Origin: a virus
Virus record (IMG/VR): IMGVR_UViG_3300037245_003639
Reading direction: 5' to 3' (one strand)
DNA: 64,000 bases
Shown: positions 32,573-52,396 of the stretch, piece by piece
Position numbering within the stretch: position 1 is the stretch's first letter
Layout of the letters: the number at the start of each line of letters is the position of its first letter
Made by a program: the position numbers and the translations under genes
The notes under the pieces: generated by a model
Databases searched by the model: none
What the model was told of the DNA's origin: nothing
The model's input: only the letters and a program-made list of their open reading frames with translations

Positions 32573-32683
32573 GCATAAAGTTGTTCTATTTATTAATTTC
32601 GTGTAGGTAATTCGGTGTTGAGTTATTTGGTGTGGGGTATGCGTATGAATTACTCACTTGAGATCAGTGCGGTCTACTCGATA

Positions 32684-32860
32684 CTACTTGGCCCTAATGA
32701 TTTTCGCAAGCTCCGCAGCGATTTGTCGGTTGCTGTTGCCGTCTTGAAACATTTGAAGCCCCTTGTCTCTCACGTCGTCGTCATGCCAGTGGGCATTGGC
32801 TTTTGCTTTTCCTACCAAGTCCCACAACATCATCAGGATAAGACCTTGTTGACTCGCCAT
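32684..32860 (-). CDS. hypothetical protein, 58 aa
   Basis: Promoter 32878-32905. Confidence 0.4.
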   Translation of the reverse strand: MASQQGLILMMLWDLVGKAKANAHWHDDDVRDKGLQMFQDGNSNRQIAAELAKIIRAK

Positions 32861-32877
32861 GTTTGCTCCCTTTGCTA

Positions 32878-32905
32878 AGTATATCACATCTCAGCAGATT
32901 GTCAA
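32878..32905 (-). promoter_or_regulatory. sigma70-type promoter TTGACA-N16-TATACT
   Basis: Read directly. Confidence 0.5.
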
Positions 32906-32967
32906 GAGAAAATTAGAACATCTACACGAAGGAGACAAAGATGGAGAAACTCCAAGTTGGCACTGGC

Positions 32968-33022
32968 CACTTGAGATCAGTGCATCTTTAGAAGATTCGA
33001 TGACCCACACTGATCTCAAGCG
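32968..33022. repeat. inverted pair of the 15-bp element (F 32968-32982; R 33008-33022 imperfect, 13/15)
   Basis: Read directly. Confidence 0.7.
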
Positions 33023-33046
33023 AGTTCCATTTAAGATCTTTTGCTC

Positions 33047-33198
33047 TTTATTAACTTTATGCTGTCTTGTAACTCGTTTATTTGCAAGGGTTTATGGAAG
33101 CCCGATTTAACTATGTCAGTGATGTGATTTTAGCTTTTATACTGTTTTATAACTCGTTTGTTTACAAGGGTTTATGAGAGGTCTGATTTAGACTATTT
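33047..33198. repeat. two direct repeats of about 72 bp (TTATRCTGTYTTRTAACTCGTTTRTTTRCAAGGGTTTATG...)
   Basis: Units 33047-33116 and 33127-33198, about 80% identical. Confidence 0.6.
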
Positions 33199-33240
33199 CG
33201 ATGGTGTGGATTAATAAAGATCGCTCTGCTTAAATAAAAA

Positions 33241-33270
33241 CCGCCCAAGCGTGAACTTGAGCGGTTAGGT
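33241..33270 (-). terminator. rho-independent terminator (ccgctcaag-N6-cttgggcgg plus U-tract) after gene 33289-33639
   Basis: Stem and T-run read on the minus strand. Confidence 0.6.
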
Positions 33271-33288
33271 CAAAGTGGTAAGGGGTTG

Positions 33289-33639
33289 CTACCTTTCGTC
33301 GGGAAACATCAGAGTGATGCCACCGCTTCCGTTGGCCCCAATCCATACGTCTTTGCCCGTGACGTTTCCTCCGAGGCCTTCCGTCCACAGATGATCAGCG
33401 GGGTTGCCCTTTACAATCAGCAGAGCGTCCTGGATGAGTGGGATGGCTCGCTGTTCGAACGTCCTGTCGTCCTGGACGGCTTCGATGGCTTCGTGGACTC
33501 TGACGGTCAAGAAGACTCGGACTCCAAACTTGGCTGGAAATGGCTCACCAATCATGCCGTCTTCGAGCGCGTCGTCGTCGGTATAGACGCTGATAGGGTC
33601 GCCAAACATCTCGGTCATCGGGTCTTTTGCTTTGCTCAT
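33289..33639 (-). CDS. hypothetical protein, 116 aa; leaderless (ATG 6 nt after the -10 TACTAT)
   Basis: Promoter 33646-33674 (TTGACA-N17-TACTAT). Confidence 0.45.
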   Translation of the reverse strand: MSKAKDPMTEMFGDPISVYTDDDALEDGMIGEPFPAKFGVRVFLTVRVHEAIEAVQDDRTFEQRAIPLIQDALLIVKGNPADHLWTEGLGGNVTGKDVWIGANGSGGITLMFPDER

Positions 33640-33689
33640 GTATGAATAGTAACCCATGTTTGCCACTTTGTCAAGCGAAAAATTGGTTC

Positions 33690-33703
33690 TTTTCCGCGGA
33701 AAA
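33690..33703. promoter_or_regulatory. perfect 14-bp palindrome TTTTCCGCGGAAAA about 16 bp upstream of the -35 (centre near -62)
   Basis: Read directly. Confidence 0.5.
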
Positions 33704-33900
33704 TTGAAGAGTTTGCGAATTTTGTAATTTTGTAACTTTGTAACTGTTTCGCAATTTCGCAATTTTGCAACTTTGTAACTGTTGCAACTTTGCAAGTATT
33801 TGCAACTTTGCAACTTTGCAACTTTGCAACTTTGCAACTTTGCAACTTTGCAACTTTGCAACTTTGCAACTTTGCAACTTTGTATTTGCAACTTTGCGAA
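33700..33900. repeat. microsatellite: 8-bp unit TTGCAACT (about 13 pure copies at 33796-33896, degenerate copies upstream)
   Basis: Read directly; the ORF-track products with KVAKLQSCK repeats are artefacts of it. Confidence 0.85.
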
Positions 33901-33935
33901 GATTCAACTATTTCAAGTTTGGGTGGAACCAGGTT

Positions 33936-34012
33936 CACTTGAGATCAGTGTAAAAAGTAATTTCGTGTAGGTAATTCCGTGTTGCAATTTCGTGTAGCAC
34001 TGATCTCAAGTG
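33936..34012. repeat. inverted pair of the 15-bp element (F 33936-33950, R 33998-34012) enclosing three AATTYCGTGTWG iterons
   Basis: Read directly. Confidence 0.8.
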
Positions 34013-34061
34013 GGCCTGGTCAGCGCTCCATCAGGGTGGCCTGCTTGCCCTTTTATGTGGG

Positions 34062-34097
34062 CGCAAAAAAAGAGCGACCCATTTCTGGATCGCTCTA
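34062..34097 (-). terminator. rho-independent terminator (agagcga-N12-tcgctct plus U7) after gene 34141-34341
   Basis: Read on the minus strand. Confidence 0.65.
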
Positions 34098-34140
34098 CCG
34101 CGCAAGCAAGCGGATTTCTCCGCTTGCCCTCTACCGCCCG

Positions 34141-34341
34141 CTAGTCGTCGAGCGTGACGGGTACGAGTTTCACCCGAATCAGTTTCGTTTCGTCCCTTTC
34201 AGGATGCGGGTGATGGTAGTGGACGATCACGCCTTCGTCGTCAGAGCCGACGGGTTCTGGCGCTTCGGCGCGAGCGCTCTCCTCCAGCCCTACTTTGATG
34301 CACGCGATCAAACTCTTTTTCTCTGCCGCCGTCATTGCCAT
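34141..34341 (-). CDS. hypothetical protein, 66 aa
   Basis: ORF. Confidence 0.4.
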   Translation of the reverse strand: MAMTAAEKKSLIACIKVGLEESARAEAPEPVGSDDEGVIVHYHHPHPERDETKLIRVKLVPVTLDD

Positions 34342-34392
34342 TGTTGGCGCTCCTTATGTAGGTTTTAGTGGTCCTCACACATTTGTGCTACC

Positions 34393-34881
34393 TTATCCTA
34401 CAAGTCGTTGTTGTTGGGCTAATCGAGCGTCACGGATGCGGGTTGCCGTCTCGCGCTCGATAGACCTTACTTCTTTGTCGGATGGCCCTGCCAGTTTATC
34501 CAGCGGCGTATCACAGTCCATCCCCGTCAAATCCAACTCCACAGTCTCGCCGCTTTGCTCGGCCATTTCGAGAGCATCCCCGATAACATCGAGTTTGCTC
34601 ATGGTCAGACAGAGCCGTGCTCCATCATGGTGACAGAGTAGGGCGAAATGCTCAGCAGACAGACCCATCAGGAAGTCGATGGTACGCTCGGATCTTGGCG
34701 TATACTGGGTAAACATCGACGTTAGTAACCGATGGCGGTTGCCCGTTGTAACGTCTACCACTTTGCCGTGAGGCGAAGCCACGTTGTTGTATCTGCCGCT
34801 TCCCGGTTTGCGGCCAGCTTCGGCTCTGCGTTTCTTATGTATGCCACTGTCGGCTGTTCTGTCCTGAATTGCTATGCTCAT
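34393..34881 (-). CDS. hypothetical protein, 162 aa
   Basis: Promoter 34916-34944 (TTGACA-N17-TAAACT). Confidence 0.45.
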   Translation of the reverse strand: MSIAIQDRTADSGIHKKRRAEAGRKPGSGRYNNVASPHGKVVDVTTGNRHRLLTSMFTQYTPRSERTIDFLMGLSAEHFALLCHHDGARLCLTMSKLDVIGDALEMAEQSGETVELDLTGMDCDTPLDKLAGPSDKEVRSIERETATRIRDARLAQQQRLVG

Positions 34882-34972
34882 TGTGGTTCCCTTTCATCGC
34901 TTTGACCATACCAGTAGTTTACAGTGCGTTTCTGGTCCTGTCAAGGCTTTGTCAAGGATTTTCTCACTAACT

Positions 34973-35710
34973 TTACGCCAAGCCCATTGTCCGCCGATAC
35001 TCGGCTTCGTCCATCGGGACGCCACCAGCGGGAGCCGCTTCCATGCCGCTTGTCGTGACAACGTGACGGCGGCTGTACTCCAATGCTTCGGTCGAGTCGT
35101 ACTCAATCGGGCTGTCTTGCGTCGGGTCGGTGACAATCCACGTATGACCGAGAGCGTGAAACTCGGTAACTCCCCGCATACAGAGTTGCGTATACGGTCG
35201 CCACTGGCCGAAACGTCCAGCCATTTTCTGTCCGTTAGGCTGGATTTTCACGCCGTCAGTATAGAAACCCGCCAGCGGATACAGGTCACGCTCTAGCGGG
35301 TCATAGTTACGGCCGCGGCCCGTCAAAACGGGAGCGTGACGGGAGCCGTTACCCTTTTCCCGATTGTAGTTGATACAGGATACCCAGCGGAGCGTACGAG
35401 CGGCTTGTAGGATGATTTTCTCACCCGGGCGTCGGGCTGGCTTTTCTCGCAAGTCGTAACGCTTGCCGTCAGGTCCGTAGACGATGCTAGCATTACTTCT
35501 ATCAGGATGCGTTTGTCCATCGTCAGTAACGAGCTTGGAATGGTCGCCACAACGCACCAGCGTCCCGCTTTCCGTCATGTTGGGGGGCGGATAGCGGGAA
35601 TAAACGTCGGTACGTCGGACAATGTTAGCAGTGAAGATTCGCCACGGTGATTTAGCGATAATATCAAACGTCGCTTTGACTTCCTGTCGCCTGATATGGT
35701 AAGTCGCCAT
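34973..35710 (-). CDS. hypothetical protein, 245 aa (His-containing block EFHALGHTW; possible hydrolase)
   Basis: Promoter 35739-35768 (TTGACA-N18-CATAAT) and the conserved leader. Confidence 0.45.
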   Translation of the reverse strand: MATYHIRRQEVKATFDIIAKSPWRIFTANIVRRTDVYSRYPPPNMTESGTLVRCGDHSKLVTDDGQTHPDRSNASIVYGPDGKRYDLREKPARRPGEKIILQAARTLRWVSCINYNREKGNGSRHAPVLTGRGRNYDPLERDLYPLAGFYTDGVKIQPNGQKMAGRFGQWRPYTQLCMRGVTEFHALGHTWIVTDPTQDSPIEYDSTEALEYSRRHVVTTSGMEAAPAGGVPMDEAEYRRTMGLA

Positions 35711-35763
35711 GCTATCCCTTTCGCTTTGACCTATAGGGATTATGGCCTATGTTGGGCTTGCTG

Positions 35764-36018
35764 TCAAGTTCTTTTTGGCTTAAAATTCTCGGGATGCGCG
35801 GTCTTGCGAACGTCAACGTAGTCACGAACCGCTTGCTTCGTAGCTACATGAACCCAGCTTTTGTCTGGGAAGTCGATTCGCCAGTAACGGGTACGATAGA
35901 TACCGTCCCCAAAATCCTTCGGTGTCCCACATTGTCCCCAATTGCAGTAACAATGTACAGGGACTATCTTACAGCCCTTGTATGTCCAGTTTTTGCGGCG
36001 GTCTGGTTTCATGCTCAA
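35764..36018 (-). CDS. small Cys-rich protein, 84 aa
   Basis: ORF. Confidence 0.4.
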   Translation of the reverse strand: MSMKPDRRKNWTYKGCKIVPVHCYCNWGQCGTPKDFGDGIYRTRYWRIDFPDKSWVHVATKQAVRDYVDVRKTAHPENFKPKRT

Positions 36019-36113
36019 ACCCTACAGCAGATTCGGCAGGTTGTCAAGTTCTTTTGCGAGAAAACTCGACTAACCGGCCAAGCAGGAGGCCAGCGTCCAC
36101 TTGAGATCAGTGT

Positions 36114-36445
36114 TCATCCTGAGTTGTCAGCCCCCTCCATAGCAGTCGTGACAGCGTCGGCAATCTTAGCGGGGTTTGCGTTTCTGATAAGCGGATACAA
36201 CGCCACTAGCAGGGATTCCACGCCGTCGGTAAAACCGTTAGCAAACAGACGGTCTCTCACGTCGCATTCGAACGTGCCTTGCAGCTCGCTCTTGGCATCT
36301 TGGATGCTGGCTGTGCTACCGTCGCATTCGTAGCAACAGTTATCCTGCCCGCAATGGTCGCAGGTCTGACGAGGCAACGCCGATGCGATGCTATTCTCAA
36401 CCAACTCGATTTCGACATTCTGTGGATATACTCGAAATTTCACGC
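36114..36445 (-). CDS. hypothetical Cys-rich protein, 110 aa (GTG start)
   Basis: SD GGAGGA directly after the 15-bp element at 36455-36469; stop followed by the element at 36098-36112. Confidence 0.45.
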
Positions 36446-36605
36446 CAGTCCTCCACTTGAGATCAGTGCTCTTCCTACTCTACGCCACTTGAATTCTGTC
36501 GGCATCACGAGTCCTCAACTCCTGAAACGGTAGTTTACCTGATACCGGCTGGCTTGTCAAGGGAATTATATGTTCATTTTATGAGAAATTTATTCAGAGT
36601 TGGGG

Positions 36606-36634
36606 TTGACAAATGCTTGACAGTGTTGTATACT
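36606..36634 (+). promoter_or_regulatory. plus-strand sigma70-type promoter TTGACA-N17-TATACT inside the minus-strand block
   Basis: Read directly. Confidence 0.5.
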
Positions 36635-36640
36635 TCATTC

Positions 36641-36800
36641 TGTTGAGTGAATGGAATGGCCCATAGGAGGCCGAAACCCGCGCAGGAGAATCGCCTATGC
36701 GAACCGGAAACACCTGGTCAAGTTCCTAATTATTGGTCAACATCGCGCAGACGTACCGTTCGACATACGGTCCCGGGTCCAAACCCGGGGCCGTTTTTAT
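36641..36800 (+). ncRNA. candidate sRNA of about 160 nt between promoter 36606-36634 and terminator cccggg-tccaaa-cccggg plus T-tract (36772-36799)
   Basis: The only ORF, 36651-36839, runs through the terminator and has no SD. Confidence 0.4.
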
Positions 36801-36891
36801 TTCGTGTTGCAATTCAGTGTTAGCACTGATCTCAAGTGAGTGATCCAGGGTGACAGATTATGTCACCTTCGACGACCTCGTCATCTGCTTA

Positions 36892-36929
36892 AATAAAAAA
36901 ACCGCCAGCAATCTTTCGATCACTGACGG
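36892..36929 (-). terminator. rho-independent terminator (gccgtcag-N14-ctggcgg plus U7) after gene 36946-37512
   Basis: Read on the minus strand. Confidence 0.5.
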
Positions 36930-36945
36930 CATAAAGTATTCGGTG

Positions 36946-37512
36946 TTAGTCTTCGGGTATCAGATGCGTCACATCCAATTCCTGGTCGAACAGGATTGTC
37001 GCGCATGTCGCAGGCAGCATGTCAGTATCCAGGTCGAGGTGCATCGCCGAGGCCACATCCTCGCAGATACTATCAGGAGCGTGAAAGTCCTCGTGGACAG
37101 CAACAAAGAATGGGAAGACGTAGACCCGTTCGCCTTCCTTCCGATCCAGGTAACTCAAGTCAAGGGCAGCGTCGATACGGGCCAACAGGGCTTCCGAGTG
37201 GGCGATTGCGTCTCTGTTTCTTTCGCCATCGTCGTGTCGAGCAGGAGAACTAGGAAGTTCCAACTCCGCTTGTGCGCTGTCGATGCGGCCCTCCACATCC
37301 TCCCGATACTCCAGAACCAGTTTGTGAAGCTCCACGATGAGATTGGGCTGGGCAAACAGGTCAGCCCATTCACCGTAATTCTCGTCCCCTGGGCGACGGA
37401 TTTCTTCGACGTTGCCATGTATGTCTCGGCGACGGATTTTACCGTCATCATCGGGGAACTCGATTACCCCGCCATCGGAAAGCTCGAAACCACCTTCGGA
37501 GAATTTGCCATT
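36946..37512 (-). CDS. hypothetical acidic protein, about 188 aa (GTG start after AAAAAGGAG)
   Basis: Promoter TTGACA-N17-TATATT at about 37533-37562; the longer ORF-track start overlaps the -10. Confidence 0.45.
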
Positions 37513-37575
37513 CACTGTGAACTCCTTTTTGACCACTGAAGTAATATACCACATCTGAAGTGAATTGTCAAGGGG

Positions 37576-37682
37576 GAATGTTCAAAAAAAAGCCACGGCG
37601 ATGGCGCGTCCGCCGCAGCTTGCTCGCAACTAGCTGGTCAAAGCCTGAAAGGAGCCACTGAACGTGGTTCCCAGTTACGAGC
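37576..37682 (-). ncRNA. candidate sRNA of about 105 nt: promoter TTGACA-N17-TACAAT (37689-37717), no ORF, hairpin plus U8 terminator
   Basis: Read directly. Confidence 0.35.
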
Positions 37683-37717
37683 AATAGCATTGTATCGGGA
37701 GCGGGCATGATTGTCAA

Positions 37718-37776
37718 ACAAAAAGCCCGCCGGTCGAATCCCTGTTGTCGCGAACAGCAGGGAAAGACCAGCGGGC
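37718..37776 (-). terminator. strong rho-independent terminator (11-bp outer stem enclosing an 8-bp inner hairpin, plus U-tract) after the small ORF 37823-38029
   Basis: Read on the minus strand. Confidence 0.65.
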
Positions 37777-37822
37777 TATCATTCATTATGTCACATAAGC
37801 CTCGGCTTGGACGACGCTATCG

Positions 37823-38029
37823 TTAGAAGATTGCGAACTTTCGTCCTACAGTATGAGTCATTCTAACTTCACAAATGCAATGGCGGGTTGATACCGCCAG
37901 CCGAGGACTGTCTAACGAGAGGAAGAGAGCTTCAAGCTCCGTTGGCGTGGTAGCGATAGCATCTTGCGGAACTGCTGGGATTGCAGATGCCGTCGCTGCA
38001 AAAATGATAAGCTCAAAGCCAATCACCAT
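37823..38029 (-). CDS. 68-aa hydrophobic peptide; leaderless (ATG 6 nt after the consensus TATAAT)
   Basis: Promoter 38036-38063 (TTGACA-N16-TATAAT). Confidence 0.35.
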   Translation of the reverse strand: MVIGFELIIFAATASAIPAVPQDAIATTPTELEALFLSLDSPRLAVSTRHCICEVRMTHTVGRKFAIF

Positions 38030-38075
38030 GAGTGTATTATACCATTAAAGGACAGGTTGTCAAGCAAAAACGGAT

Positions 38076-38540: not shown

Positions 38541-38606
38541 GTTGGTAGTCTACTTCATCCTGGTGAGCGACGCCGTTCCACTTGAGATCAGTGTCGCTCG
38601 GCCTTC

Positions 38607-38753
38607 ACTCACCGATTTCGTCCAATGCCCCCAGCACAGCGGCTTCTAGCTTCTCAAACGCTGTCTGCTTACTCCCGTCAATCGGGTGAACAACCTCTTG
38701 CTCTGGGTCGATGCCTTGATTTCGCAAGATTTCTTCGATAAGTTCATTCATCT
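38607..38753 (-). CDS. hypothetical protein, 48 aa
   Basis: Promoter TTGACA-N17-TAGACT (38772-38798). Confidence 0.35.
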
Positions 38754-38820
38754 TTGCTCCCTTGCGGGTAGTCTACTCCATCCGCGAAAGTTTGTCAAGG
38801 ACGGATTCGGAACTAGCTTG

Positions 38821-39204: not shown

Positions 39205-39225
39205 GGGTCAGAACCTCACTTGAGA

Positions 39226-39600
39226 TCAGTGCCCTTGTTCCACGGCCAACTGTTTGAGTTTCATCTTGGCTATCTGTTTGGCATACTTGCGGAGCATCTT
39301 CTTCGCTCCAGCAGCCATCCTAAGCGTTATGTCTCCACGCCAGTTGGCAATGCGACCACCGAAGTCGCCATCCCGCCCATTGTAACCAATTCGGTTGAGA
39401 GCGATAGTCCGACCAGCGTCTTGCTCTTCGTTGGTCTGTTGCGAATGAATCATCTTAGCGGCCCGTTTCAAGGCAGCCCGATGTTCACGTAGGTTGATGT
39501 CGCAAGTAGAATCAAACCACTCACGAATCGCTTTAGCCTTGGCGTTGAGTTCTTTCGTTGTCATTGGCCCGTGCCTTTCGGGCTTTCTTGCCCCTGGCAT
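39226..39600 (-). CDS. hypothetical protein (start uncertain: MPGARK or MTTKEL); stop TGA lies inside the 15-bp element 39217-39231
   Basis: An out-of-frame 48-aa basic ORF (39537-39683) is TAATG-coupled to the upstream gene. Confidence 0.4.
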   Translation of the reverse strand: MPGARKPERHGPMTTKELNAKAKAIREWFDSTCDINLREHRAALKRAAKMIHSQQTNEEQDAGRTIALNRIGYNGRDGDFGGRIANWRGDITLRMAAGAKKMLRKYAKQIAKMKLKQLAVEQGH

Positions 39601-39678
39601 TCGGTTGTTTGGGAGGAACTATCACGGTGACTTCTACGGGTCGGCTACCCAACGTCAAAACTGCCAGTCGCTTATCCA

Positions 39679-39927
39679 TTAGCTTGTCCTCGCGTTCACT
39701 TTCCACTTATTGCCACAGTTCCCCCGACAAAAAGCCTCGTCCCCCATAATTTCCACTGTCCCTGATTGGCAGAGCGGACATTCACGGTTAGGAGGAGGCT
39801 CAATCGTTGGCTTGAAGTTGGCGTACCGTTCGTAATGCTCGGTACAAAAGTCGAAGTGGCCGACATGATGCGATGCTCGCTTATCGCAACGCTCATCTGG
39901 TTTTAGTAGTTGCCAGTTGCATCTCAT
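39679..39927 (-). CDS. zinc-finger protein, 82 aa
   Basis: Cys/His pairs. Confidence 0.4.
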   Translation of the reverse strand: MRCNWQLLKPDERCDKRASHHVGHFDFCTEHYERYANFKPTIEPPPNRECPLCQSGTVEIMGDEAFCRGNCGNKWKVNARTS

Positions 39928-40011
39928 GTCGGTATCTTACTCTATTCTGGTTGAATTGTCAAGCGGAACTTTGTTCTATTTCGTGTTGCAATTCCGTGTT
40001 GGAATTCCGTG

Positions 40012-40674
40012 TTAGGCAGCGGCTTCTACTTGCTTGCGGACTTCATCGTCCACGCTATCCAGCATCCCGTTTTCCGTAGGGTCGCTGCCATAGAAACCCC
40101 AGCATGAATCGCCAGTTTCCCCTCTTCCGCCGCATTCGCCACAGGGCGGCTTGCGGACGATGTAGCCGTAGGTATCGCCCGCGAGAAACTGACTGTAGAT
40201 TTCCACTTCGGCAACCAACGCTGCCGTTATCCGCGCGAGCAATTCGTCGGTCAGAAATTCAGGGTTGCTTTCCGGACAGAATTCTTCGATAATCCTCCGC
40301 TTTGTGATGTAAATCCAACCGACTTGCCCCCAGTCCCATCCCGCCGAATCACAGGCGCGAAACGCATCGTTGCTGGTCCGCAAGGCAAGGCCGCTATGGT
40401 CCATGAGAAACAGCGGAAGTATCACTTCGATTCCGTCGCTCACATGCTCTTCCTGGCATGTATGAATCGAATGCAAGTGGGCCTTCAATCCATCCCAGTC
40501 CTTGAAGTCTTCGGAGCGATAGTCATGTTCGTCGCCCAGATTGTAGCGACCGTGGAAGCAAACCATCGTTCCGAGGTTATCCCAGTCACGGGGACTTTCG
40601 GGGTCAGAGTCAGAGTGAATCTCAAACTGACCACCATTGGAAAGTTGAATCGTCTGAATCGGGTCCAATTTCAT
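40012..40674 (-). CDS. hypothetical protein, 220 aa
   Basis: The TTTTCCGCGGAAA box lies between the -35 and -10 of its promoter (40726-40738). Confidence 0.5.
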   Translation of the reverse strand: MKLDPIQTIQLSNGGQFEIHSDSDPESPRDWDNLGTMVCFHGRYNLGDEHDYRSEDFKDWDGLKAHLHSIHTCQEEHVSDGIEVILPLFLMDHSGLALRTSNDAFRACDSAGWDWGQVGWIYITKRRIIEEFCPESNPEFLTDELLARITAALVAEVEIYSQFLAGDTYGYIVRKPPCGECGGRGETGDSCWGFYGSDPTENGMLDSVDDEVRKQVEAAA

Positions 40675-40739
40675 CTCCTGTTAGCGTAGCTCGCTTTGCT
40701 AGCTTGATAGATGAACCTTACCAGATTTTCCGCGGAAAG

Positions 40740-41698: not shown

Positions 41699-41707
41699 CG
41701 CAATCTC

Positions 41708-42764: not shown

Positions 42765-42887
42765 TTTGTTTCTCCTATTGACCCAACTATACATTGCCAT
42801 TGGTGGTTTGTCAAGGATAATTTTCAGTGCGGGAAATTCCGTGTTGCGAATTTCGTGTTGAGGCCCAGCCCCGGGCTAACATTAATC

Positions 42888-42945
42888 CACTTGAGATCAG
42901 TGCTAAGCAATTTCGTGTTGGGTATAGCTACACTGATCTCAAGTG
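42888..42945. repeat. inverted pair of the 15-bp element (F 42888-42902, R 42931-42945) enclosing one AATTTCGTGTTG iteron
   Basis: Read directly. Confidence 0.8.
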
Positions 42946-43063: not shown

Positions 43064-43085
43064 CAGCTTTGGGTAAGCTGTAAGA

Positions 43086-43490
43086 TTAGTCGAGCTTAGG
43101 TTCCGGCAAGCTCCACAGTTCGCAGTAATCTCTCAGAACGACTTTCTGGCAATCCGCAGGCAAGTCCTCGAAACGGATGCGCCGTCCAAGATTAGGGTTG
43201 TGACGACAGATACGGCCCACTTGCTCAGTCCAGCCGTGAGGGCAATCGATGATGGTTTGGCTCTCGCCATGCATACAGATATGGCGCGGGTCCGCGCTCA
43301 TCCCCACGTACTGAAACCACGGCAATTTATGGTAAGGCGTATGTTTCGGTATGCCACGTTGACGATAGCGGCCCGTATAGCAGACCGTATAGCGGTCATT
43401 CTCATCGGGGCCTGAATCCCATACTCGAATCCAGCGGGGGATGCCCTGAGGCATGAGACGTTCAACTCGGTCTGCCTGTCTCTTAGTCAT
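43086..43490 (-). CDS. hypothetical Cys/His-rich protein, 134 aa
   Basis: TTTCCCGCGGAAAA box at 43549-43562 upstream of its promoter. Confidence 0.45.
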   Translation of the reverse strand: MTKRQADRVERLMPQGIPRWIRVWDSGPDENDRYTVCYTGRYRQRGIPKHTPYHKLPWFQYVGMSADPRHICMHGESQTIIDCPHGWTEQVGRICRHNPNLGRRIRFEDLPADCQKVVLRDYCELWSLPEPKLD

Positions 43491-43678
43491 GTCAATAGCT
43501 TACCCCATCACGCCCGATTTGTCAATCCCATTTTGATGTTCCATTTGATTTCCCGCGGAAAAGTTTGAAGGCTATAGATATGCGTCTCTTCTGGTATTCC
43601 GTGTTGGCCTACATCGCTCTCTGTTAAAAGAGCAGGGACGGGCCATGTAGACCCGTCCCTTTGTCATCCCTCCCTCTC

Positions 43679-45172
43679 CTAGTTCTCGGTATCCTCCAGA
43701 CCCGACGAAATAGCGTCCGCATCGGCTTCCACTTCGGCATCAGCGTCGGAAGTATCCTCCGCCGTATCCGTCAGGTCCGCAGCGGGAGCGTCCTCGACAA
43801 CGGGAGCGTCCGCAACAGGCAGGGTCTCGACAACGGGCTCGGGCTCGGTCTCGACCCTCTTAGTCGGCTGACGCTTCGGACGCTTCGCCTTGGGCTTGGG
43901 CTTGGGCTTCGCCTTGGGCTTCGCCTTGGGCTTCGCCTTGGGCTTCGCCTTGGGCTCGGGAGCCTCTTCCGTCTCTTCCACTTCGGCCCGCAACGCTTGA
44001 CGGGACTCGTGGGTAAGGGCGTCACCGCAGCGGAGACCGATGATGCAGGTAATCCGCTTGTCGCCACGGTCATCCCCGAAGGTCATCGCCATCGGCTGGT
44101 CGATAACCGCATTACGGAGACCAAAGCAGGCCAGGACGGTCGGGTTGTTGCGGGTCTGGACGCCCATATTGTAGAAAATGGCATCCTCAGCCGCTTCCTC
44201 ATCATCCCACGACTCCAGGAAGTAATCCCACGCCGACTTGCCGTCCTCATCGTGGGTTGCCTTGGCGTTCATGAGCTTCTTGACCGCCGCAACCAACGCA
44301 GCCTTGCTGACGCTGTTACCGACGATGGGTTCGGCCAGGGCCTTGAAAGTGATACCCTTCGTATTCTCACTCTCAACCGCCTTGGCGATTTGAGCGTAGG
44401 TCATTGCCTTGCCGCTACGCATGAGACGGCCAGCGGTCGCCAACTGGTTCGGCAGCATGACCACAGGCGTACCCTGGGTACGGTCGCCTGTCCACGGGAC
44501 GGTCGTAACGCTGTTGTTGACCTGAAAGACGATGTTGCGGATTTCGTCCTCACGGCCACGAAACGCCAGACGTTTCGCGCAGATCACGTTGGCGCCGTAG
44601 GTATTGCTACCCGTGGAACCGTGAAAAACGTCGATAGCGTGACTTTTGTCGTCGCCAATGACGTACTCGGATTTGCCCACTATCACGAGATGGCCTTCAC
44701 CCGTGACATTGCGACGAACATCCTTGAGAGCCTGCGCCCGTCCGAAAGTAATGCTGATGCCGTAGCCCGGTTTCCACGCCGGGAGATGGGAAGACCAGTT
44801 TTCGGGCTGTTCCTGATTGCGGCTGGCCTGTCCATTGCCAGCAAAAGTCATTCCCAGACTCTTGGCCGCAGCCAGCAAAACGGGCTGATGGACCGCCGGG
44901 ACAGCCGGGACGTGCTTCGCATCGCGACCCGCATACAGGGCCTTGTTCATGCTGTCGTCGCTGTAGGTCTCGGTTGTCTCATCCCACTCGCCCCACTTCG
45001 CCTCAATCTCCGCCACCGTGAACCGACCACCATTGACCTCAGCCACGGTCAACTTCTCGCCAGCGACCAGCTTGTGGGCCAGGGTTACGAGATGATCAGG
45101 CTTCACAGGCAGGAGGAGATTGCAGACAGGCGGGGCCGTCTTCGGTTTGCTCTTACTCTTGGCCATTTGCAA
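43679..45172 (-). CDS. hypothetical protein, 497 aa, with a C-terminal lysine-rich tandem repeat (PKAK)n, histone H1-like tail
   Basis: 12-bp DNA repeat gccttgggcttc at 43905-43950; promoter 45242-45270 (TTGACA-N17-TAAACT). Confidence 0.5.
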   Translation of the reverse strand: MQMAKSKSKPKTAPPVCNLLLPVKPDHLVTLAHKLVAGEKLTVAEVNGGRFTVAEIEAKWGEWDETTETYSDDSMNKALYAGRDAKHVPAVPAVHQPVLLAAAKSLGMTFAGNGQASRNQEQPENWSSHLPAWKPGYGISITFGRAQALKDVRRNVTGEGHLVIVGKSEYVIGDDKSHAIDVFHGSTGSNTYGANVICAKRLAFRGREDEIRNIVFQVNNSVTTVPWTGDRTQGTPVVMLPNQLATAGRLMRSGKAMTYAQIAKAVESENTKGITFKALAEPIVGNSVSKAALVAAVKKLMNAKATHDEDGKSAWDYFLESWDDEEAAEDAIFYNMGVQTRNNPTVLACFGLRNAVIDQPMAMTFGDDRGDKRITCIIGLRCGDALTHESRQALRAEVEETEEAPEPKAKPKAKPKAKPKAKPKPKPKAKRPKRQPTKRVETEPEPVVETLPVADAPVVEDAPAADLTDTAEDTSDADAEVEADADAISSGLEDTEN

Positions 45173-46055: not shown

Positions 46056-46997
46056 TCAAGCAAAAACTGGGTGATGCACGGCCAAATGTTTTTGACCATT
46101 CGGAGTTATCATCCGTCCCCGTGATGTCCTGTCTATCATCCCCAGACTCAACAAAATCGGTTCCACGGTCTCTTCAATCACTTCAACCTGTTGACCCAGC
46201 CGACCAGCAATTCCACCCACACCACGGGGACCAGGAGTATCAGCCAATATCCTAAGATACTCAACATGCAACTCTTCAAGACCAATCGGGTCTATTCCTT
46301 CCAACCTAATGGCCAACTGACAATGAACCAACGTCAATTCAGAAGCATGGGAAGCCAAAAAGACATTGCGAACTTTCTCGGCCAACCTTTTAGCTTGCCG
46401 AGGAATTCCTAAACAACGTTTGGCTATGTACTCCAGGTGTGGATAATTCGTGTCAACGCCTTGAGATTCAAAATACTTGTGAAGGATGGTTATCAGGTCG
46501 TTGACTGAATACCTGCCCACTCGCCAGATGTTACCGAACCGTTTTACAAACGATGCCTGATCCAATTCGTCTCGTCGAGTAGTGGCAGCCATCAAAGTAT
46601 ACGGAGCCAAACCAATGGTTTTAGTTGGCAACAATATCCGAGGACTCTCTCGATCCATAGGATAATAGAAGACTTCTTGTTGTGGCTCGGAAAGTCTTTG
46701 AACTTCATCGATGAAGAGCAGCAAAGGTTTGCCTGCTTGAATAGCAGCTTCGTTAGCAGAAAGTAAGCGTTGAATGATTTGGTCCCGCGTCTTCAGTGCA
46801 GCAGCTTCAGTTACAATCGAGTAGTAACCGAGTTCTTCTGCAATGGCTAACGCAAGCGCAGTCTTACCAGTGCCACCAACCCCTTCGAGCAGAGTATGTG
46901 GGAAGACTTCACCTGTCTGACGACAGGCCTCGATATCGATATGGGCGCGAGCTTTCTCACGCCGCAAACCGATCAGTTTATCTAAACCTTTTGTCAT
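46056..46997 (-). CDS. ruvB: RuvB-like AAA+ ATPase (Holliday-junction branch-migration motor family)
   Basis: LLEGVGGTGKTALA, LLFIDEVQRLSEPQQEVFYYPMD, TLMAATTRRDEL, GIPRQAKRLAEKVRN, RTSRGRMIT parallel E. coli RuvB blocks. Confidence 0.8.
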   Translation of the reverse strand: MTKGLDKLIGLRREKARAHIDIEACRQTGEVFPHTLLEGVGGTGKTALALAIAEELGYYSIVTEAAALKTRDQIIQRLLSANEAAIQAGKPLLLFIDEVQRLSEPQQEVFYYPMDRESPRILLPTKTIGLAPYTLMAATTRRDELDQASFVKRFGNIWRVGRYSVNDLITILHKYFESQGVDTNYPHLEYIAKRCLGIPRQAKRLAEKVRNVFLASHASELTLVHCQLAIRLEGIDPIGLEELHVEYLRILADTPGPRGVGGIAGRLGQQVEVIEETVEPILLSLGMIDRTSRGRMITPNGQKHLAVHHPVFA

Positions 46998-47001
46998 ATT
47001 G

Positions 47002-47427
47002 TTAGGGCAAGTCCCCGACGCTCTCCAGAATGCTAGTTGGGTCGCCCTCTACTTGCCAGTACAGCGTGTCAGTGGTCAGGTCTACCCCAATTAGAGAATA
47101 GACGATATCACGCAGAACCACTGTACCCGTAAGTCGCATACTCAAATGTTCATCGAACGCTTCAATGTCCCACATCATCACTTCACCTAACGTGATAGCA
47201 ATAACGCCCTCCACATGACCGACGAACCCAGGCTCACTGTAATCAGCCGCAGGGTCAGCATTGTCTTTCGCCTGTTTACGAATCGTCTCGATGGACAGCG
47301 GTTCCTTTAGACAAACGGCCAGAAGATTCAACGTATGTTGAGCGCACCCCAGGACCGTGTCGTCGATTTCACCATCTCTACCCATAGCGTGGGAATACTG
47401 TTCTGCAAAGGTTTTCATGGCTCCCAT
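47002..47427 (-). CDS. hypothetical protein, 141 aa
   Basis: ORF. Confidence 0.45.
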   Translation of the reverse strand: MGAMKTFAEQYSHAMGRDGEIDDTVLGCAQHTLNLLAVCLKEPLSIETIRKQAKDNADPAADYSEPGFVGHVEGVIAITLGEVMMWDIEAFDEHLSMRLTGTVVLRDIVYSLIGVDLTTDTLYWQVEGDPTSILESVGDLP

Positions 47428-47876
47428 TTTATTCCTCCAGGTCGAAATAGCGGGTCATGTTATTTTCCTCACCATGTTTGGTACCTTGGGGTTTTTAAAG
47501 ACTTTGATGCACTGTTTTAGAACGGCAGGGTCAATTTGAAACTCTCTCCTCGACCCGAAGTCCATCTGAAAGTCAACGCCATCCAGTTTCTTCTCAAAGA
47601 TGAACTCGTCATACCCAGTCGGGAGAGTCGGCTCAGGCAGGGGGTCGAAACCCATCGCCATTCGCAACGCATTGTCTGACCGCAGTTTTAGTCGAGCAGC
47701 TTCTTGCTCAACAGTCAACCCCGAAAATCCACTCAAACCCGTAGTGACTGGACGAGACGGGGCAGACCCACTTTTCGCGGGAACAATTTGAAGCCGCTCA
47801 GCCAGCAGTGTGTCTCGACGTATATTCACCCGTTGGCAAAGACCATTCCAGGCCATGAGCTTCGAGTTGTCCATCA

Positions 47877-48371
47877 CTACTCTGGCCCCCATCCACAACC
47901 TTGACAGAAGACGCTTGTTGCCCCTTGAATCAAACTGCAAGAGCAATTAGGGCAGCCATCCCCCTGTTGCGGCGGATGCTTACCACCGCATACCGACAGC
48001 GGCTTGCCACATTCACAGTCGCAAGAACACGGAGATTCATAGCAGGTTGAGCATAACGGATCCCAACCCAGAACCTTATGAACTTTGTTCATCATCTCAA
48101 TCGGGAGCGTCCCAACGTCCGTACAGCCCTCGATCTCAAAGTCGTTGGCCAAGTCGATCAGCAGCTTGGATGTTTCGTCCACGGTCACATTGAGCACCTC
48201 AATGCCGACCTGATCATCAAGGTCATGGACAAACCCCTCACTTTCCCCATACTTCATAGCATGAAGAATCGCTGCCTGCACCGCTCGTTGAAGTTGCTTA
48301 TCGGGAATCGAGCCCGAACCATCAGGATCGATTAGCGACGTGCGTAATGTGACGTTGATTTGAATGTCCAT
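47877..48371 (-). CDS. hypothetical protein with a C-terminal Cys-rich cluster
   Basis: ORF. Confidence 0.4.
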   Translation of the reverse strand: MDIQINVTLRTSLIDPDGSGSIPDKQLQRAVQAAILHAMKYGESEGFVHDLDDQVGIEVLNVTVDETSKLLIDLANDFEIEGCTDVGTLPIEMMNKVHKVLGWDPLCSTCYESPCSCDCECGKPLSVCGGKHPPQQGDGCPNCSCSLIQGATSVFCQGCGWGPE

Positions 48372-48428
48372 GTTGTTTCTCCAGTTGGATGAAGTATACC
48401 CTATCCAGCAGAGTTTGTCAAGGGCAAT

Positions 48429-48839
48429 CTAATGTTCTTCGATTGCTACATCGGCCACGCAAACTACCGTCGTTTCTGCATGGTCATGCTCAAACCCACT
48501 GTTCTCTGCAAATTTGAGAGCCCTATTCACCGCCTGTTGAGCAGCCGACTCAGACGCTTCCTTAGTCAACGCTCCATCAGAATCCACCTGCAATGTCACT
48601 CTGATTACAACTTCACAGACAGTTCCATCCTTCTTCGGCGGAATGGAGCATCGCCCATCTTTTACCACCACGCGAATTTGGAGTTCTCGTAATCGATCAT
48701 TGAACTCGCGCGAGGTACTGTCCGCATGGAAGTTCGCCTCAGTCATAAATTGAATGAACCTAACGAATGCTTTTTCCCTGATTCCATATTCCAACATCGC
48801 CTGAACGAAAGCCAGCAATCTTTTTTGTTCTTCTGTCAT
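48429..48839 (-). CDS. hypothetical protein, 136 aa
   Basis: ATGA overlap with the upstream small ORF. Confidence 0.45.
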   Translation of the reverse strand: MTEEQKRLLAFVQAMLEYGIREKAFVRFIQFMTEANFHADSTSREFNDRLRELQIRVVVKDGRCSIPPKKDGTVCEVVIRVTLQVDSDGALTKEASESAAQQAVNRALKFAENSGFEHDHAETTVVCVADVAIEEH

Positions 48840-49330
48840 AGTCTAGGTCTCCGCATCCCTTTTGGACGCTTCTTGGGTTGTGGCTTGGAAGGTCTTGAAG
48901 CAGGAGGCCGACCAGACCCACTTGAGATCAGTGTCTTGGGACGCCCCCGTTTGAGCTTCGTGGTGGATTTCCTGGCCTTTGCCGACATGCAACCCTGGAG
49001 TCTAAGATGAGCCCCAGGCCAACAGGACTGACAGTCTTTGCATTCAAACCAATCAGGACAGGTTGGCATCTCTTTGATGCTGCGTTGGCAATCAGGACAG
49101 GTAGGCATCCTACTTTCCTAGACGGAAGCAGAACCAACGATGAGCGGCCTTGTCCGGTGAACGTTGCTGAGCAGCAAAATGCGTTGTCTCTTGACCTCGG
49201 AAATTCGGCCCTTCCCCGTCTGCTACTGCAAGCAATTCGCGAGCCAAGCGGCGAGCTTCGTCACGATTGACGTGGATTCGCTCCATAACCGAACCATGCT
49301 CACTTGAGATTTTTTCAGTAGTAACCTTCA

Positions 49331-49504
49331 TCAGAAGCCCTCCAAAAGTAACGCTCGAATCTTGGCAACTCGACGTTCTTTACGATGCGTAAGGGTCTTC
49401 GTGAAACGCCCCGGCGTCTCTCCATGACGATGAAGCCGAGATGACCAATACTCTCGGTCTCTCGGAGCCTCACGAGACTTGCTACCTGTATGTCGTCGTT
49501 GCAT
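49331..49504 (-). CDS. 57-aa basic protein; leaderless (ATG 6 nt after the -10)
   Basis: Promoter 49511-49539 (TTGACA-N17-TATAGT). Confidence 0.4.
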   Translation of the reverse strand: MQRRHTGSKSREAPRDREYWSSRLHRHGETPGRFTKTLTHRKERRVAKIRALLLEGF

Positions 49505-49737
49505 GATTGAACTATAACGTGACCTTGACAGATTGTCAAGCGTACTTGGTGAGAAACTTGGTGATCCGTGGGTAATACTCACAGGCCGTCACGATCAACA
49601 TGCTGGCCACAGCGTATCGCCAATTCTCTACGTTAGGAGCAACCAGCGATAGGCCATAGGAGATAGCCCCACAGGCAACTATCCAACAGATAAGGTCAAG
49701 AAGGCGAATCACAACTTTGTTCATGTCGTATCCTCAA

Positions 49738-50244
49738 TTAACCTTGCGAAACAGATTGCCGTATCAACTGGTACATATGAACCTTCATGTCCGCCACAGA
49801 CATAAATTCTGTGACAGGTTCGTTCCCCTCTCCAGAATCTAATTGAAGTTGCCAACGCTCAGGACCATTTTGGACCAACGAGTACCGTTGGTTAGTTTGA
49901 GCCGTCAACCGGCCAAGCAAATCAAAAGGATGTTCGTGAGACAACATTCCATTCACGGCCAGCCAGTCAAACAACTCCCCTTCACTCGTGATGAAGTCCC
50001 CGCCGGGGTGATTGGTCTCTCTGCTGTCATGGCAGAGCGTGAATCCACAGCCCTTGCAACGAAACGAATAAATCCCGTCACAGTCGTCCGTCGAATGGTC
50101 CGTCTCACCATAGTTACAGGCAAACGCATCTCCACCCTGAGATTCGAGCGATTCAACCACCGTGGACTGTACCACGTCAGTTAAGACTTCCTCAAGAACC
50201 GTCTCCCCGCATTGCGGGCATTTGAAGTTGAGATCGACTCTCAT
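49738..50244 (-). CDS. hypothetical Cys-rich protein, 168 aa
   Basis: ORF. Confidence 0.45.
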   Translation of the reverse strand: MRVDLNFKCPQCGETVLEEVLTDVVQSTVVESLESQGGDAFACNYGETDHSTDDCDGIYSFRCKGCGFTLCHDSRETNHPGGDFITSEGELFDWLAVNGMLSHEHPFDLLGRLTAQTNQRYSLVQNGPERWQLQLDSGEGNEPVTEFMSVADMKVHMYQLIRQSVSQG

Positions 50245-50891
50245 CCGTTATCCCCAATGAAATTGGACGTAATCGCATTCGCCGTATCATCAGGATAAAA
50301 GTGCATCTGAGCCAACGAAACCTCACCCGGTAATTCATGCCGCAAATGAGCCCACAGCTTCCTACTCAATGACATACGCCGCCCTTCGCTGTTGTCAAAG
50401 ATTGTATAGTAGTCAGATGCAGGAGCGACCGACGCTGCCAATTCCTCATCACAACGCTCATGCGCCCAGTAAACAAACTCCACTTTGCCCCCTGGGAGGT
50501 CATACTCCGTCGTGAACTCATGCTTCATCTCGAAAAACGGCTTCCCCTGTGAGACAGCAGCGGGCTTCGAGACCGCCACCTGGATAGCCATCCACAGGAA
50601 CAACATCATAGCCACATACGCCATAACCCGCCAAAAACCCATGCGACAGAAGTTGATGTTCGGATGGTCCTGAGTATTGAAGTCACCACTCGATACCTTC
50701 GCAATACCCACGGCCTCATTCACCCCAGACCGCCACATGGCAAAGATACCCGCAAGCATTGGAAGGATGACAAATACCCACGTAGGAATCACGATGCTGA
50801 ATGACGGAAAACTCAAAATCAAAGCGTTCATTTCGGCTCCTCTTGCCAGTAGACAATCCAGTTTGACGCCCCTAGTTGAGAACAGGGGCAA
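50241..50891 (-). CDS. membrane protein, 216 aa
   Basis: ORF; N-terminal TM region resembles gene 27987-28235. Confidence 0.45.
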   Translation of the reverse strand: MPLFSTRGVKLDCLLARGAEMNALILSFPSFSIVIPTWVFVILPMLAGIFAMWRSGVNEAVGIAKVSSGDFNTQDHPNINFCRMGFWRVMAYVAMMLFLWMAIQVAVSKPAAVSQGKPFFEMKHEFTTEYDLPGGKVEFVYWAHERCDEELAASVAPASDYYTIFDNSEGRRMSLSRKLWAHLRHELPGEVSLAQMHFYPDDTANAITSNFIGDNG

Positions 50892-51168
50892 CAGTCAAGG
50901 TGTCCCAGTACCATCCCGACTCATCAGGCCCGTGAGCATCGTCATCGTAGGCAAGGTCATCAATGACCAAAGCCGTGCCATCACCCAGGGGTATAACGAC
51001 GTGTCGGTCATTGCCCTCACGATCTTTCAATCTTTGTATGGTTGTTTCGTCGAGACTGTCCAAGAACTTCTCAACCAGTGTATCCCGTTGAGACGAGTGG
51101 GTCTCTACGTCGATCTGTGCTTCGTTGAGTTGAACTTCTGTGTCGCTTAGTTGAGCTATGATATTCAC
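50872..51168 (-). CDS. hypothetical acidic protein, 98 aa (GTG start)
   Basis: SD GGGAG; promoter TTGACA-N17-TAGGAT at about 51200-51240. Confidence 0.4.
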   Translation of the reverse strand: MNIIAQLSDTEVQLNEAQIDVETHSSQRDTLVEKFLDSLDETTIQRLKDREGNDRHVVIPLGDGTALVIDDLAYDDDAHGPDESGWYWDTLTVAPVLN

Positions 51169-51336
51169 GTCAAACTCCCAAAACCAAGGTTTCCATGTCC
51201 GAATCGAATCCTACCACTCAACGTCCAGATTGTCAAGGCTATTTACGTGGTTCAGAATTTCCCAGTTAAAAGGAATATATTAACACGCACGCATGAAGCC
51301 GCTGTTGGAAATGGAGGCTCCGCCGCGCTGAAGAGC

Positions 51337-51381
51337 CACTTGAGATCAGTGCGCTGAAATGGAAGACACTGATCTCAAGTG
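51337..51381. repeat. inverted pair of the 15-bp element with a 15-bp spacer (F 51337-51351, R 51367-51381)
   Basis: Read directly. Confidence 0.8.
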
Positions 51382-51480
51382 ATGTGTGCTAAGCCGGCGC
51401 TAGATCATCCGCGATCGCGAATCCAGAAGATTTTGATTAACGAATTGTCCGAAATGGGAAATAAAGGAGCTGTCCTTCCC

Positions 51481-51536
51481 CACTTGAGATCAGTGTCCTG
51501 TTTATCAGACCTTGAAACTTACACTGATCTCAAGTG
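51481..51536. repeat. inverted pair of the 15-bp element with a 26-bp spacer (F 51481-51495, R 51522-51536)
   Basis: Read directly. Confidence 0.8.
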
Positions 51537-51860
51537 AGCGTGTGCCAGGGTATTTCATACCGCATATTATCTCAATCGGAATGGGGGGAACAAAAAGTGG
51601 AAACAAAGCGCGGACCCAGGACATCCCCCAATGTCCCGAGTCTCTTCTTTCCCCAGGAGAACACCTGAGCCTACACAGCTTTCAATTCTATGGGCCAAAA
51701 TGCAAGTCAATTTTCATCCACTTTCTCCTATTATACAAGGAATGTGTGTCCAATTATCAGAAGATTATATATGCACACTACTTCATATCCCAGTTCATTT
51801 CAATAAGAACTATTTTAAGAAGTTCAATTAGGACAATAGAAAAGTTGCGAGCCGCATCGA

Positions 51861-52060
51861 TGGAATCTTTGTTCTTTGGGGTTTGATTGTTGTGTTCTAA
51901 TGGAATCTTTGTTCTTTGGGGTTTGATTGTTGTGTTCTAATAGAATCTTTTTATTGATGGTAGAATCTTTGTTTTTTGGGGTTTGATTGTTGTGTTCTAA
52001 TAGAATCTTTTTATTGATGTTTATTGATGGTAGAATCTTTCTGTTGATATTGTGTTCTAG
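51861..52060. repeat. 40-bp tandem repeat T(G/A)GAATCTTTGTTYTTTGGGGTTTGATTGTTGTGTTCTAA (3 full units plus a degenerate one) interleaved with AT-rich 20-mers
   Basis: Units at 51861, 51901, 51961 and about 52031. Confidence 0.85.
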
Positions 52061-52093
52061 TTTTTCAAACCCAAAAATCTAATGTTTGAAATC

Positions 52094-52152
52094 TATTTCG
52101 TGTTGGGTTTCATGTTCCTGGGAATTTCGTGTTGGGTTGAATTTCGTGCTGG
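52094..52152. repeat. three AATTTCGTG(T/C)TGG iterons
   Basis: Copies at 52094, 52123 and 52140. Confidence 0.7.
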
Positions 52153-52252
52153 TTGAGCTACTGTGTTATTCTGTGGTTCAAAATGGGTCTCAGTGGGTGC
52201 ATTTCCCTGTTATTCCCTGGTAGACCCAATAAATGGTCTGCATTTCATAAAG

Positions 52253-52396
52253 TTATTCGGTGCAGCCCCTTCAATTCAGTGCATTCCTGTAGCCAAATTC
52301 CAATTCGGTGCAAGGTTAATGGTATTCTGTGTCTATTTGAATTCGGTGCAAGGCTATTCGGTGCAAGAATAGAGCGTGATTGAATTCGGTGCAAGG
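52253..52396. repeat. six direct copies of (G/C)AATTCGGTGCAAGG-like iterons
   Basis: Copies at 52253, 52272, 52299, 52338, 52354 and 52382. Confidence 0.75.

Follow-up and report, generated by a model that had tools for sequence, protein, structure and literature searches.

The 64,000-nucleotide stretch of the viral record IMGVR_UViG_3300037245_003639 analysed here (the window) probably derives from a giant mobile element, a huge phage, of at least 403,172 bp according to cluster tables. Its genes lie on the plus strand from 0 to 27.8 kb and on the minus strand from 28 to 64 kb. Short direct repeats of one 12-bp motif, AATTYCGTGTTG, are scattered through the minus-strand arm. They stand singly or in small head-to-tail clusters, nearly always in one orientation, and about half of the clusters examined in the window and its relatives end shortly upstream of a predicted promoter. 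Since the genes of the motif region are on the minus strand, the 12-mer is read functionally in its gene sense as CAACACGRAATT.

Six exact matches to AATTYCGTGTTG occur in the window, all on the plus strand, where 0.03 would be expected. With at most one mismatch 17 copies are found between 32.6 and 55.0 kb (fewer than one expected). All 17 are on the plus strand, in agreement with the single orientation that a first-pass annotation of this DNA had claimed for its own list of copies. The listed copies are real, with three amendments. Two starts move by one position (33958 to 33959 and 43596 to 43595), the copies at 36811 and 32624 are in register but weak (two and three mismatches, respectively), and an intragenic copy at 55014 was missing; this last copy is probably outside the system. 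The weight matrix of the 12-mer has 12 informative positions and its flanks are not conserved. It gives 17-18 strong matches on one strand, 0 on the other and <1 in shuffled sequences. A variant type, AATTCGGTGCAA, accounts for six further copies at 52.25-52.39 kb, the same number as annotated before, of which three match AATTCGGTGCAAGG exactly; written as [AT]ATTC[AG]GTGC, the six start at 52254, 52273, 52302, 52340, 52355 and 52383. The core CACNRAATT is common to the variant and the main motif, and hybrid copies such as CAACACCGAATT connect the two types. The start-to-start period is 12-15 bp in the clusters and 15-38 bp, irregularly, in the 52-kb region. The helical-repeat spacing that had been proposed, with its 10.5-bp turn, is therefore not observed.

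All promoters described here are sequence predictions. About 34 full consensus promoters, TTGACA-N16/17-TAnnnT, are present on the minus strand, roughly one per small gene, and the 36 exact CTTGACAA boxes of the window are oriented with the genes. The promoters next to the motif follow the sigma70-type consensus CTTGACA-N16/17-TAnnnT, all with an exact TTGACA. The proximal copy of cluster A (Table 1) ends 22 bp 5' of the -35 of promoter 32545-32572, that of cluster D 14 bp 5' of the -35 of promoter 39962, and that of cluster E 20 bp 5' of the -35 of promoter 42786-42814. The operon behind cluster D encodes an 82-residue zinc-ribbon protein and a basic 112-residue protein, and promoter 43497-43525, which follows a single copy, serves gene 43086-43490. 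The distal copy of cluster D (40003-40014) provides the TAA stop of gene 40012-40674, an overlap that the first-pass annotation had correctly seen. Its wider statement that clusters come right after gene ends, however, describes a by-product of their position between a gene end and the next promoter. Gene 36946-37554, near cluster C, likewise shares its stop codon with a copy, here the additional variant TAACACCGAATA at 36937-36948.

Protein-anchored look-ups retrieved five metagenomic elements that have their gene order in common with the window. The resulting six-element set (the window, L057, L058, L059, L075 and L079) comprises 125 kb; L059 is the same as L060. Where it was computed, their nucleotide identity to the window is ~73-92%. 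In coding DNA L057 is ~90% identical to the window, while L058, L059 and L075 show ~73-75% nucleotide identity, with proteins 45-79% identical. The motif is kept in all five relatives, whereas its absence from related genomes had been named in the first-pass annotation as one observation that would refute its reading. Over the six elements, 43 copies are in sense and 1 in antisense orientation (p = 5e-12), and 13 of the 27 clusters end 11-29 bp 5' of a predicted -35 (P = 5e-17; P = 2e-9 when the available DNA is cut to the intergenic quarter). The individual gaps are 11, 14, 14, 15, 16, 17, 18, 20, 21, 21, 22, 23 and 29 bp. L057 retains three intact repeats with altered spacers between them, and its 72 bp separating the last repeat from the start codon show no difference from the window. 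The motif is again upstream of predicted promoters in L058, L059, L075 and L079. In addition, copies are found within -35/-10 spacers (L059 7986; L079 ~13224) and in 5' leaders (L059 10865/10877; L079 14996). The same site is thus present at several promoters of the element (32572, 39962, 42814 and 43525), and in L059 and L079 it overlaps core promoters or leaders. In L076, which is more distantly related, the 12-mer has drifted to TAACACYGAATT, likewise upstream of promoters, and the motif is absent from still more distant IMG/VR relatives of the protein 40012-40674.

Outside this group of elements the motif was not recovered. A nucleotide search of public phage records gave no match to the region, and IMG/VR scans with the 15-mer described below or a double 12-mer gave single chance matches only. 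A metagenome scan for the module of hairpin plus motif found no contig beyond the relatives already known, and full-text literature searches for the motif strings returned primers or nothing. A double-12-mer scan of a genome collection yielded unrelated matches only. One was a 15-bp tandem repeat within coding DNA of Nostoc, and another was a pair 5' of a Pirellulales gene that, judged by eye, is sufB-like. The others were palindromic operators that precede small genes with N-termini of antitoxin-like appearance, again by eye.

Table 1. Coordinates of the repeats and associated features in the window.
Feature	Position	Strand	Remarks
Copies with <=1 mismatch (starts), first half	32595, 32609, 33959, 33973, 33986, 36798, 39977, 39990, 40003	+	
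Copies with <=1 mismatch (starts), second half	42835, 42849, 42909, 43595, 52094, 52123, 52140, 55014	+	
Cluster A	32595..32635	-	CTACACGAAATT, CAACACCGAATT, weak CCACACCAAATA (minus-strand reading)
Cluster B	33959..33997	-	Three copies: CTACACGAAATT, CAACACGGAATT, CTACACGAAATT
Cluster C	36798..36822	-	CAACACGAAATA and variant TAACACTGAATT; adjoins inverted 15-mer 36824-36838
Predicted promoter TTGACA-17-TAAGAT	39934..39962	-	Drives operon 39927-39226
Cluster D	39977..40014	-	Three copies, 13-bp period
Cluster E	42835..42860	-	Two copies, 14-bp period
Single copy	42909..42920	-	Within 28-nt loop of hairpin 42888-42945
Single copy CAACACGGAATA	43595..43606	-	69 bp 5' of the -35 of predicted promoter 43497-43525
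Large non-coding region	51170..52591		1.4 kb; nine copies, conserved box CACTGAGACCCATTTTGAACCACA, two 15-mer hairpins, tandem repeats
Three main-type copies	52094..52151	-	17- and 29-bp spacing; three L075 copies align with them
Six variant copies (T/C)TGCAC(C/T)GAAT(T/A)	52254..52394	-	Irregular spacing, the same in L075
Lone one-mismatch copy CAACACGGAAGT	55014..55025	-	Within gene 54770-55216
Palindrome TTTCCGCGGAAA	33691-33702, 40727-40738, 52907-52918, 58645-58656, 63374-63385		
Example 15-mer hairpins	29679-29733, 32968-33022, 33936-34012, 42888-42945, 51337-51381, 51481-51536		

With moderate confidence, we read the 12-mer from these sequence patterns as the recognition site of a sequence-specific DNA-binding protein that would control a subset of the sigma70-type promoters of the element. 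The protein is probably encoded by the element itself. Of the three options offered in the first-pass annotation, it is the transcription-factor array that best fits the position of the clusters relative to the -35 boxes. One protein unit would bind each asymmetric 12-mer, and head-to-tail arrays of one to three sites would be occupied at about -50 to -90 from the transcription start. In the relatives, sites in the -35/-10 spacer or the 5' leader would be bound as well, and the nine-site array of the 52-kb non-coding region would be the densest binding platform. The regulator is more likely a repressor or modulator than an obligatory activator, because the linked promoters already match the consensus, with a perfect TTGACA and a good -10, the gaps before the -35 are unphased and the copies of the relatives in spacers and leaders are in operator-like positions. 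Repression or modulation could then proceed by occlusion, trapping of RNA polymerase or a roadblock. The promoter-proximal zone appears to be in use for operators in this genome, since the palindrome TTTCCGCGGAAA occupies the same zone at five promoters. This palindrome, with the core TCCGCGGA, occurs in 5 copies against 0.9 expected and is also found in L057 and L059. At least four of the five copies are directly 5' of a -35 or, at 40729, within the -35/-10 spacer. It has the look of an operator, for a second regulator that would bind as a dimer.

Several points weigh against a role of the 12-mer as a duplex operator. The associated promoters are predictions, and eight copies, including the 52-kb array, are distant from every one of them. 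The near-absolute orientation bias is not needed by a simple repressor. Double-stranded binding leaves unexplained that 12 of the 43 copies are in loops between perfect 15-bp inverted repeats. A degenerate extra copy between the last strong copy and the -35 was considered, but it is not significant (p = 0.057). The presence of the motif at orthologous promoters differs among the relatives, which is usual for binding sites. Furthermore, the 61 right-arm and 39 left-arm proteins gave no match to a clear DNA-binding regulator, Rep or Par family. The best candidate by position, the basic 112-residue protein 39226-39564, has a confident all-helical model with no DNA-binding or informative fold match.

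The search for other candidate binders gave similar results. No window protein matched a helix-turn-helix, ribbon-helix-helix or ParB family, and ten basic or promoter-adjacent proteins had no Pfam match at E<0.01 with matches listed up to E=5. The 82-residue zinc-ribbon protein 39679-39927 gave an unusable model (pLDDT 44). The protein 53453-54049 beside the big array, considered as binder or initiator, has no homologues besides itself.

The densest array had been placed at 51.8-52.4 kb. Nine copies are indeed present in the non-coding region there, but the part at 51.86-52.02 kb is an unrelated 40/60-bp tandem repeat (51860-52019) within the AT-rich part, which is specific to the window and absent from the homologous region of L075. 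An alignment with the non-coding DNA of L075 shows conservation focused on the six variant and three main copies, on CACTGAGACCCATTTTGAACCACA and on an AT-rich box. The array may be a replication origin or a centromere. If the repeats were iterons, an initiator would bind the 52-kb array as an origin and, for autoregulation or copy control, the scattered promoter-proximal copies as additional sites, like the auxiliary initiator sites at the incA and incC loci of plasmids P1 and F. We consider this unlikely. Nine same-orientation copies in 1.4 kb of non-coding DNA conserved in L075 would suit an origin, and they adjoin both the most AT-rich DNA of the window (lowest GC, at 51.7-52.1 kb inside the non-coding region) and the minimum of the cumulative GC skew at ~51.0-51.5 kb. 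Since the flanking genes on both sides are on one strand, this skew change is not a change of transcription direction. A RuvB homologue (46056-46997; NCBIfam 9e-54, with weak clamp-loader matches too) is encoded downstream, and in L079 (1243-3912) its counterpart adjoins a DNA polymerase III beta-clamp gene, a neighbourhood that hints at a role in replication. On the other side, Pfam, PHROGs and NCBIfam searches of the 61 right-arm proteins found no Rep family and no Rep-type initiator. The skew is flat, not rising, past 53.5 kb, and near 52 kb there is one DnaA box with one mismatch (at 52940) and no cluster of such boxes. Most clusters are at promoters of unrelated small genes spread over 20 kb. 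Classical iterons are 17-22 bp long with ~22-bp phasing, that is about two helical turns, and number at least three per origin; the units found here are 12 bp long and irregularly spaced at 12-38 bp.

A second repeat accompanies the 12-mer. The 15-mer CACTGATCTCAAGTG (gene sense) is present in 27 copies at 27.8-51.5 kb (27813-51536), 19 in sense and 8 in inverted orientation. Seven of the latter have a sense partner at a distance of 15-47 nt, and some of the pairs are perfect. Copies are often exactly at gene 3' ends, where the internal TGA serves as the stop codon (39226 and 32196), and another is 8 nt after the tRNA gene 31130-31209. The relatives L058, L059 and L075 carry a central-G form, while L079 shares the central-C form of the window. 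The hairpin modules are placed after intrinsic terminators. Copies of the 12-mer within such inverted pairs, at 33936-34012 and 42888-42945, had been annotated correctly. In the first of these, cluster B occupies the whole 47-nt loop between the inverted 15-mers 33936-33950 and 33998-34012, with a terminator at 34071-34096 upstream; the succession of terminator, hairpin, motif and promoter around the 42909 copy is found again in relatives. When six terminator-hairpin modules from four elements were aligned, only the 15-mer arms and the 12-mer were conserved, and the terminators and spacers were not homologous.

These modules raise the question of a single-stranded signal. The motif, presented by one strand or by the loop of a hairpin with a 15-bp stem, would be recognised on entering or replicating single-stranded DNA, for priming or as a single-strand promoter-like element, or on RNA. 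The strict strand bias of 43 to 1 agrees with this, as do the 12 copies in perfect inverted-repeat loops, since single strands of the modules form stable folds (z = -4.4 to -7.8) that leave most of the motif unpaired. Some copies in 5' leaders and the early or anti-defence-like surroundings (an ArdC-like protein, mostly acidic proteins, a 220-residue family of plasmids and phage ends) point the same way. Yet 31 of the 43 copies are outside hairpins, the tight linkage to the -35 is a property of double-stranded promoters, and the two hairpin arms are centrally mismatched in L058 and L075. Because the modules are downstream of intrinsic terminators they would be poorly transcribed, which argues for action on DNA rather than RNA. 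On balance a single-stranded signal is decidedly doubtful. An extended form of it takes the 12-mer and the 15-mer CACTGATSTCAAGTG as a joint, orientation-locked intergenic code of the giant element (at least 403 kb), in which hairpin loops between terminators and promoters would present the 12-mer in single-stranded form. Recognition would then take place on single-stranded DNA or on an extruded structure; the 12-mer might signal priming or entry, for instance, or act as a polar insulator, instead of being an ordinary duplex operator. To this code, too, we give little credence.

Alternatively, a partition or global-regulator system (ParR/parC, TubR/tubC, omega or KorB type) could use the repeats as centromere-like sites and repress nearby promoters as well. 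Short direct-repeat arrays in several clusters across the element, many of them beside promoters, have this appearance; the tubC unit resembles the 12-bp unit, and the KorB and omega regulons resemble the scattered promoter-linked layout. However, the 64-kb window yielded no gene of the ParA, ParM, TubZ or ParB families and no parM/parR or tubR/tubZ operon 3' of a repeat array as in type II/III centromeres. The sole actin-fold protein (5665-6651, plus strand) was tried as a ParM and rejected; it is PilM-like (Amuc_1101 family, E = 3e-13) and its gene is 26 kb from the nearest copy. With 1-3 units the arrays are also below typical centromeres, and a centromere function is very unlikely. The iteron/Rep and ParR options of the first-pass annotation thus find no Rep, ParA/ParM/TubZ or ParR-like gene in the window, and an iteron- or centromere-like role would be possible for the 52-kb array only. 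Finally, that the repeats have no function of their own, being remnants of duplicated promoter cassettes or slippage products, is scarcely credible, for although the promoter regions of this arm are themselves repeat families and both copy number and presence at orthologous promoters vary among the relatives, conservation is limited to 12 positions with unrelated flanks, the motif persists where proteins are only 45-79% identical, repeats are kept while spacers change (L057), and the strand and position biases are extreme.

Identifiable proteins of the window include an ArdC-like protein, a RuvB homologue, an SNF2 helicase, an FtsH-like protein, NADAR, ACP, ClpS and a PilM-like protein; two window proteins match phage families, and no capsid or terminase gene is found in the window. 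Most proteins of 28-51 kb are strongly acidic (isoelectric point 4.1-5.5), and an ArdC-like metallopeptidase is encoded at 28276-29274. The 220-residue protein 40012-40674 belongs to a family that occurs on plasmids and near an end of several large phage genomes. The content of 28-51 kb resembles an early or anti-defence region. The protein 43679-45172 has a C-terminal (PKAK)n tail rich in lysine and proline. The Amuc_1101 family of the PilM-like protein is named after an Akkermansia protein, and the match hints that the host may come from the Planctomycetes-Verrucomicrobia group. A GroES-like open reading frame, judged by eye, is at 4383-4697 (plus strand), and 54204-54695 and 54770-55216 are tandem paralogous membrane-protein genes (286-nt repeat, 77% identity). 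The minus-strand tRNA gene 31130-31209 (50 bits) is the sole Rfam match in the window, and no RNA family reaches its gathering score at the repeats. ARAGORN assigns the tRNA no amino acid and finds its anticodon loop unusual.

Other features concern the promoters in general. Consensus sigma70-type promoters CTTGACA-N16/17-TAnnnT are unusually dense at 28268-61637 on the minus strand and at 4345-26907 on the plus strand. A subfamily at 28.2-32.9 kb has a common extended -10, TGTGGTATACT, and a conserved leader, taggtcaaagcaagggag. In the region 36606-36800 a plus-strand consensus promoter (36606-36634) is followed ~130 nt later by a strong intrinsic terminator (36767-36794), which suggests a ~160-nt antisense small transcript; this divergent promoter is kept in L059 and L079, and the region has no Rfam match. 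About 22 units of an 8-bp tandem repeat, TTTGCAAC, stand at 33712-33897, between promoter 33674 and the hairpin module with three copies, and give rise to a spurious repetitive open reading frame start.

Short direct-repeat operators are already well known as a type of feature. What the present ones offer is a tangible starting point for experiments on gene regulation in a giant element that has not been cultivated and that encodes almost only proteins without known function. There is a 12-bp site of defined sequence, there are a few target promoters, and 51.2-52.6 kb is a candidate region for control or for an origin. Identification of the binder would give a name to a new DNA-binding family and to a regulon whose genes are probably early or anti-defence ones.

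The repeats can be compared with several known systems (KorB, omega, OmpR/PhoB, MarA/SoxS, iterons and tubC). KorB is one plasmid-encoded protein with a global regulon. Like its operators (OB) on the IncP plasmid RK2, the 12-mer is one short motif with about a dozen copies over the element, located directly 5' of a -35, tens to hundreds of bp off or far from promoters, and the regulator here would also act on several transcription units. OB is, however, a 13-bp palindrome bound by a ParB-family dimer, whereas the 12-mer is asymmetric, tandem and orientation-locked, and no ParB-like gene was found. The heptad arrays of the omega repressor (plasmid pSM19035) are similar as short-repeat arrays upstream of several promoters; they are bound cooperatively and double as centromeres. 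Their units are 7 bp, contiguous, 7-10 per array and of mixed orientation, in contrast to 12 bp, 1-3 per array and a single orientation here, where no ribbon-helix-helix protein was detected.

The tandem sites of OmpR/PhoB and the marboxes of MarA/SoxS are asymmetric, of fixed orientation (43 versus 1 here) and 5' of the -35, in arrays reaching to about -100, as the present repeats are. Such regulators depend on helical phasing or on set distances, and the promoters that they serve usually have a weak -35. Here the gaps spread continuously over 11-29 bp, the copies recur every 12-15 bp and the -35 boxes are perfect. Iterons (P1, F, R6K and pSC101) and the 12-bp tubC repeats share the same-orientation repeats in an AT-rich non-coding region with extra copies elsewhere. 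The present units have another length and spacing than iterons, genes for an initiator or for TubZ/TubR were not found, and the promoters of unrelated genes account for most of the copies. Membership in each of the compared families thus fails at least one defining feature that was tested, and all we propose is that the repeats work in the manner of such systems. They are most likely a control element of an ordinary kind in an unstudied genome. By analogy of function, the operators of mobile-element global regulators such as KorB and omega, together with tandem asymmetric sites of the OmpR/PhoB or MarA type, would be their closest counterparts, and iterons and tubC looser ones.

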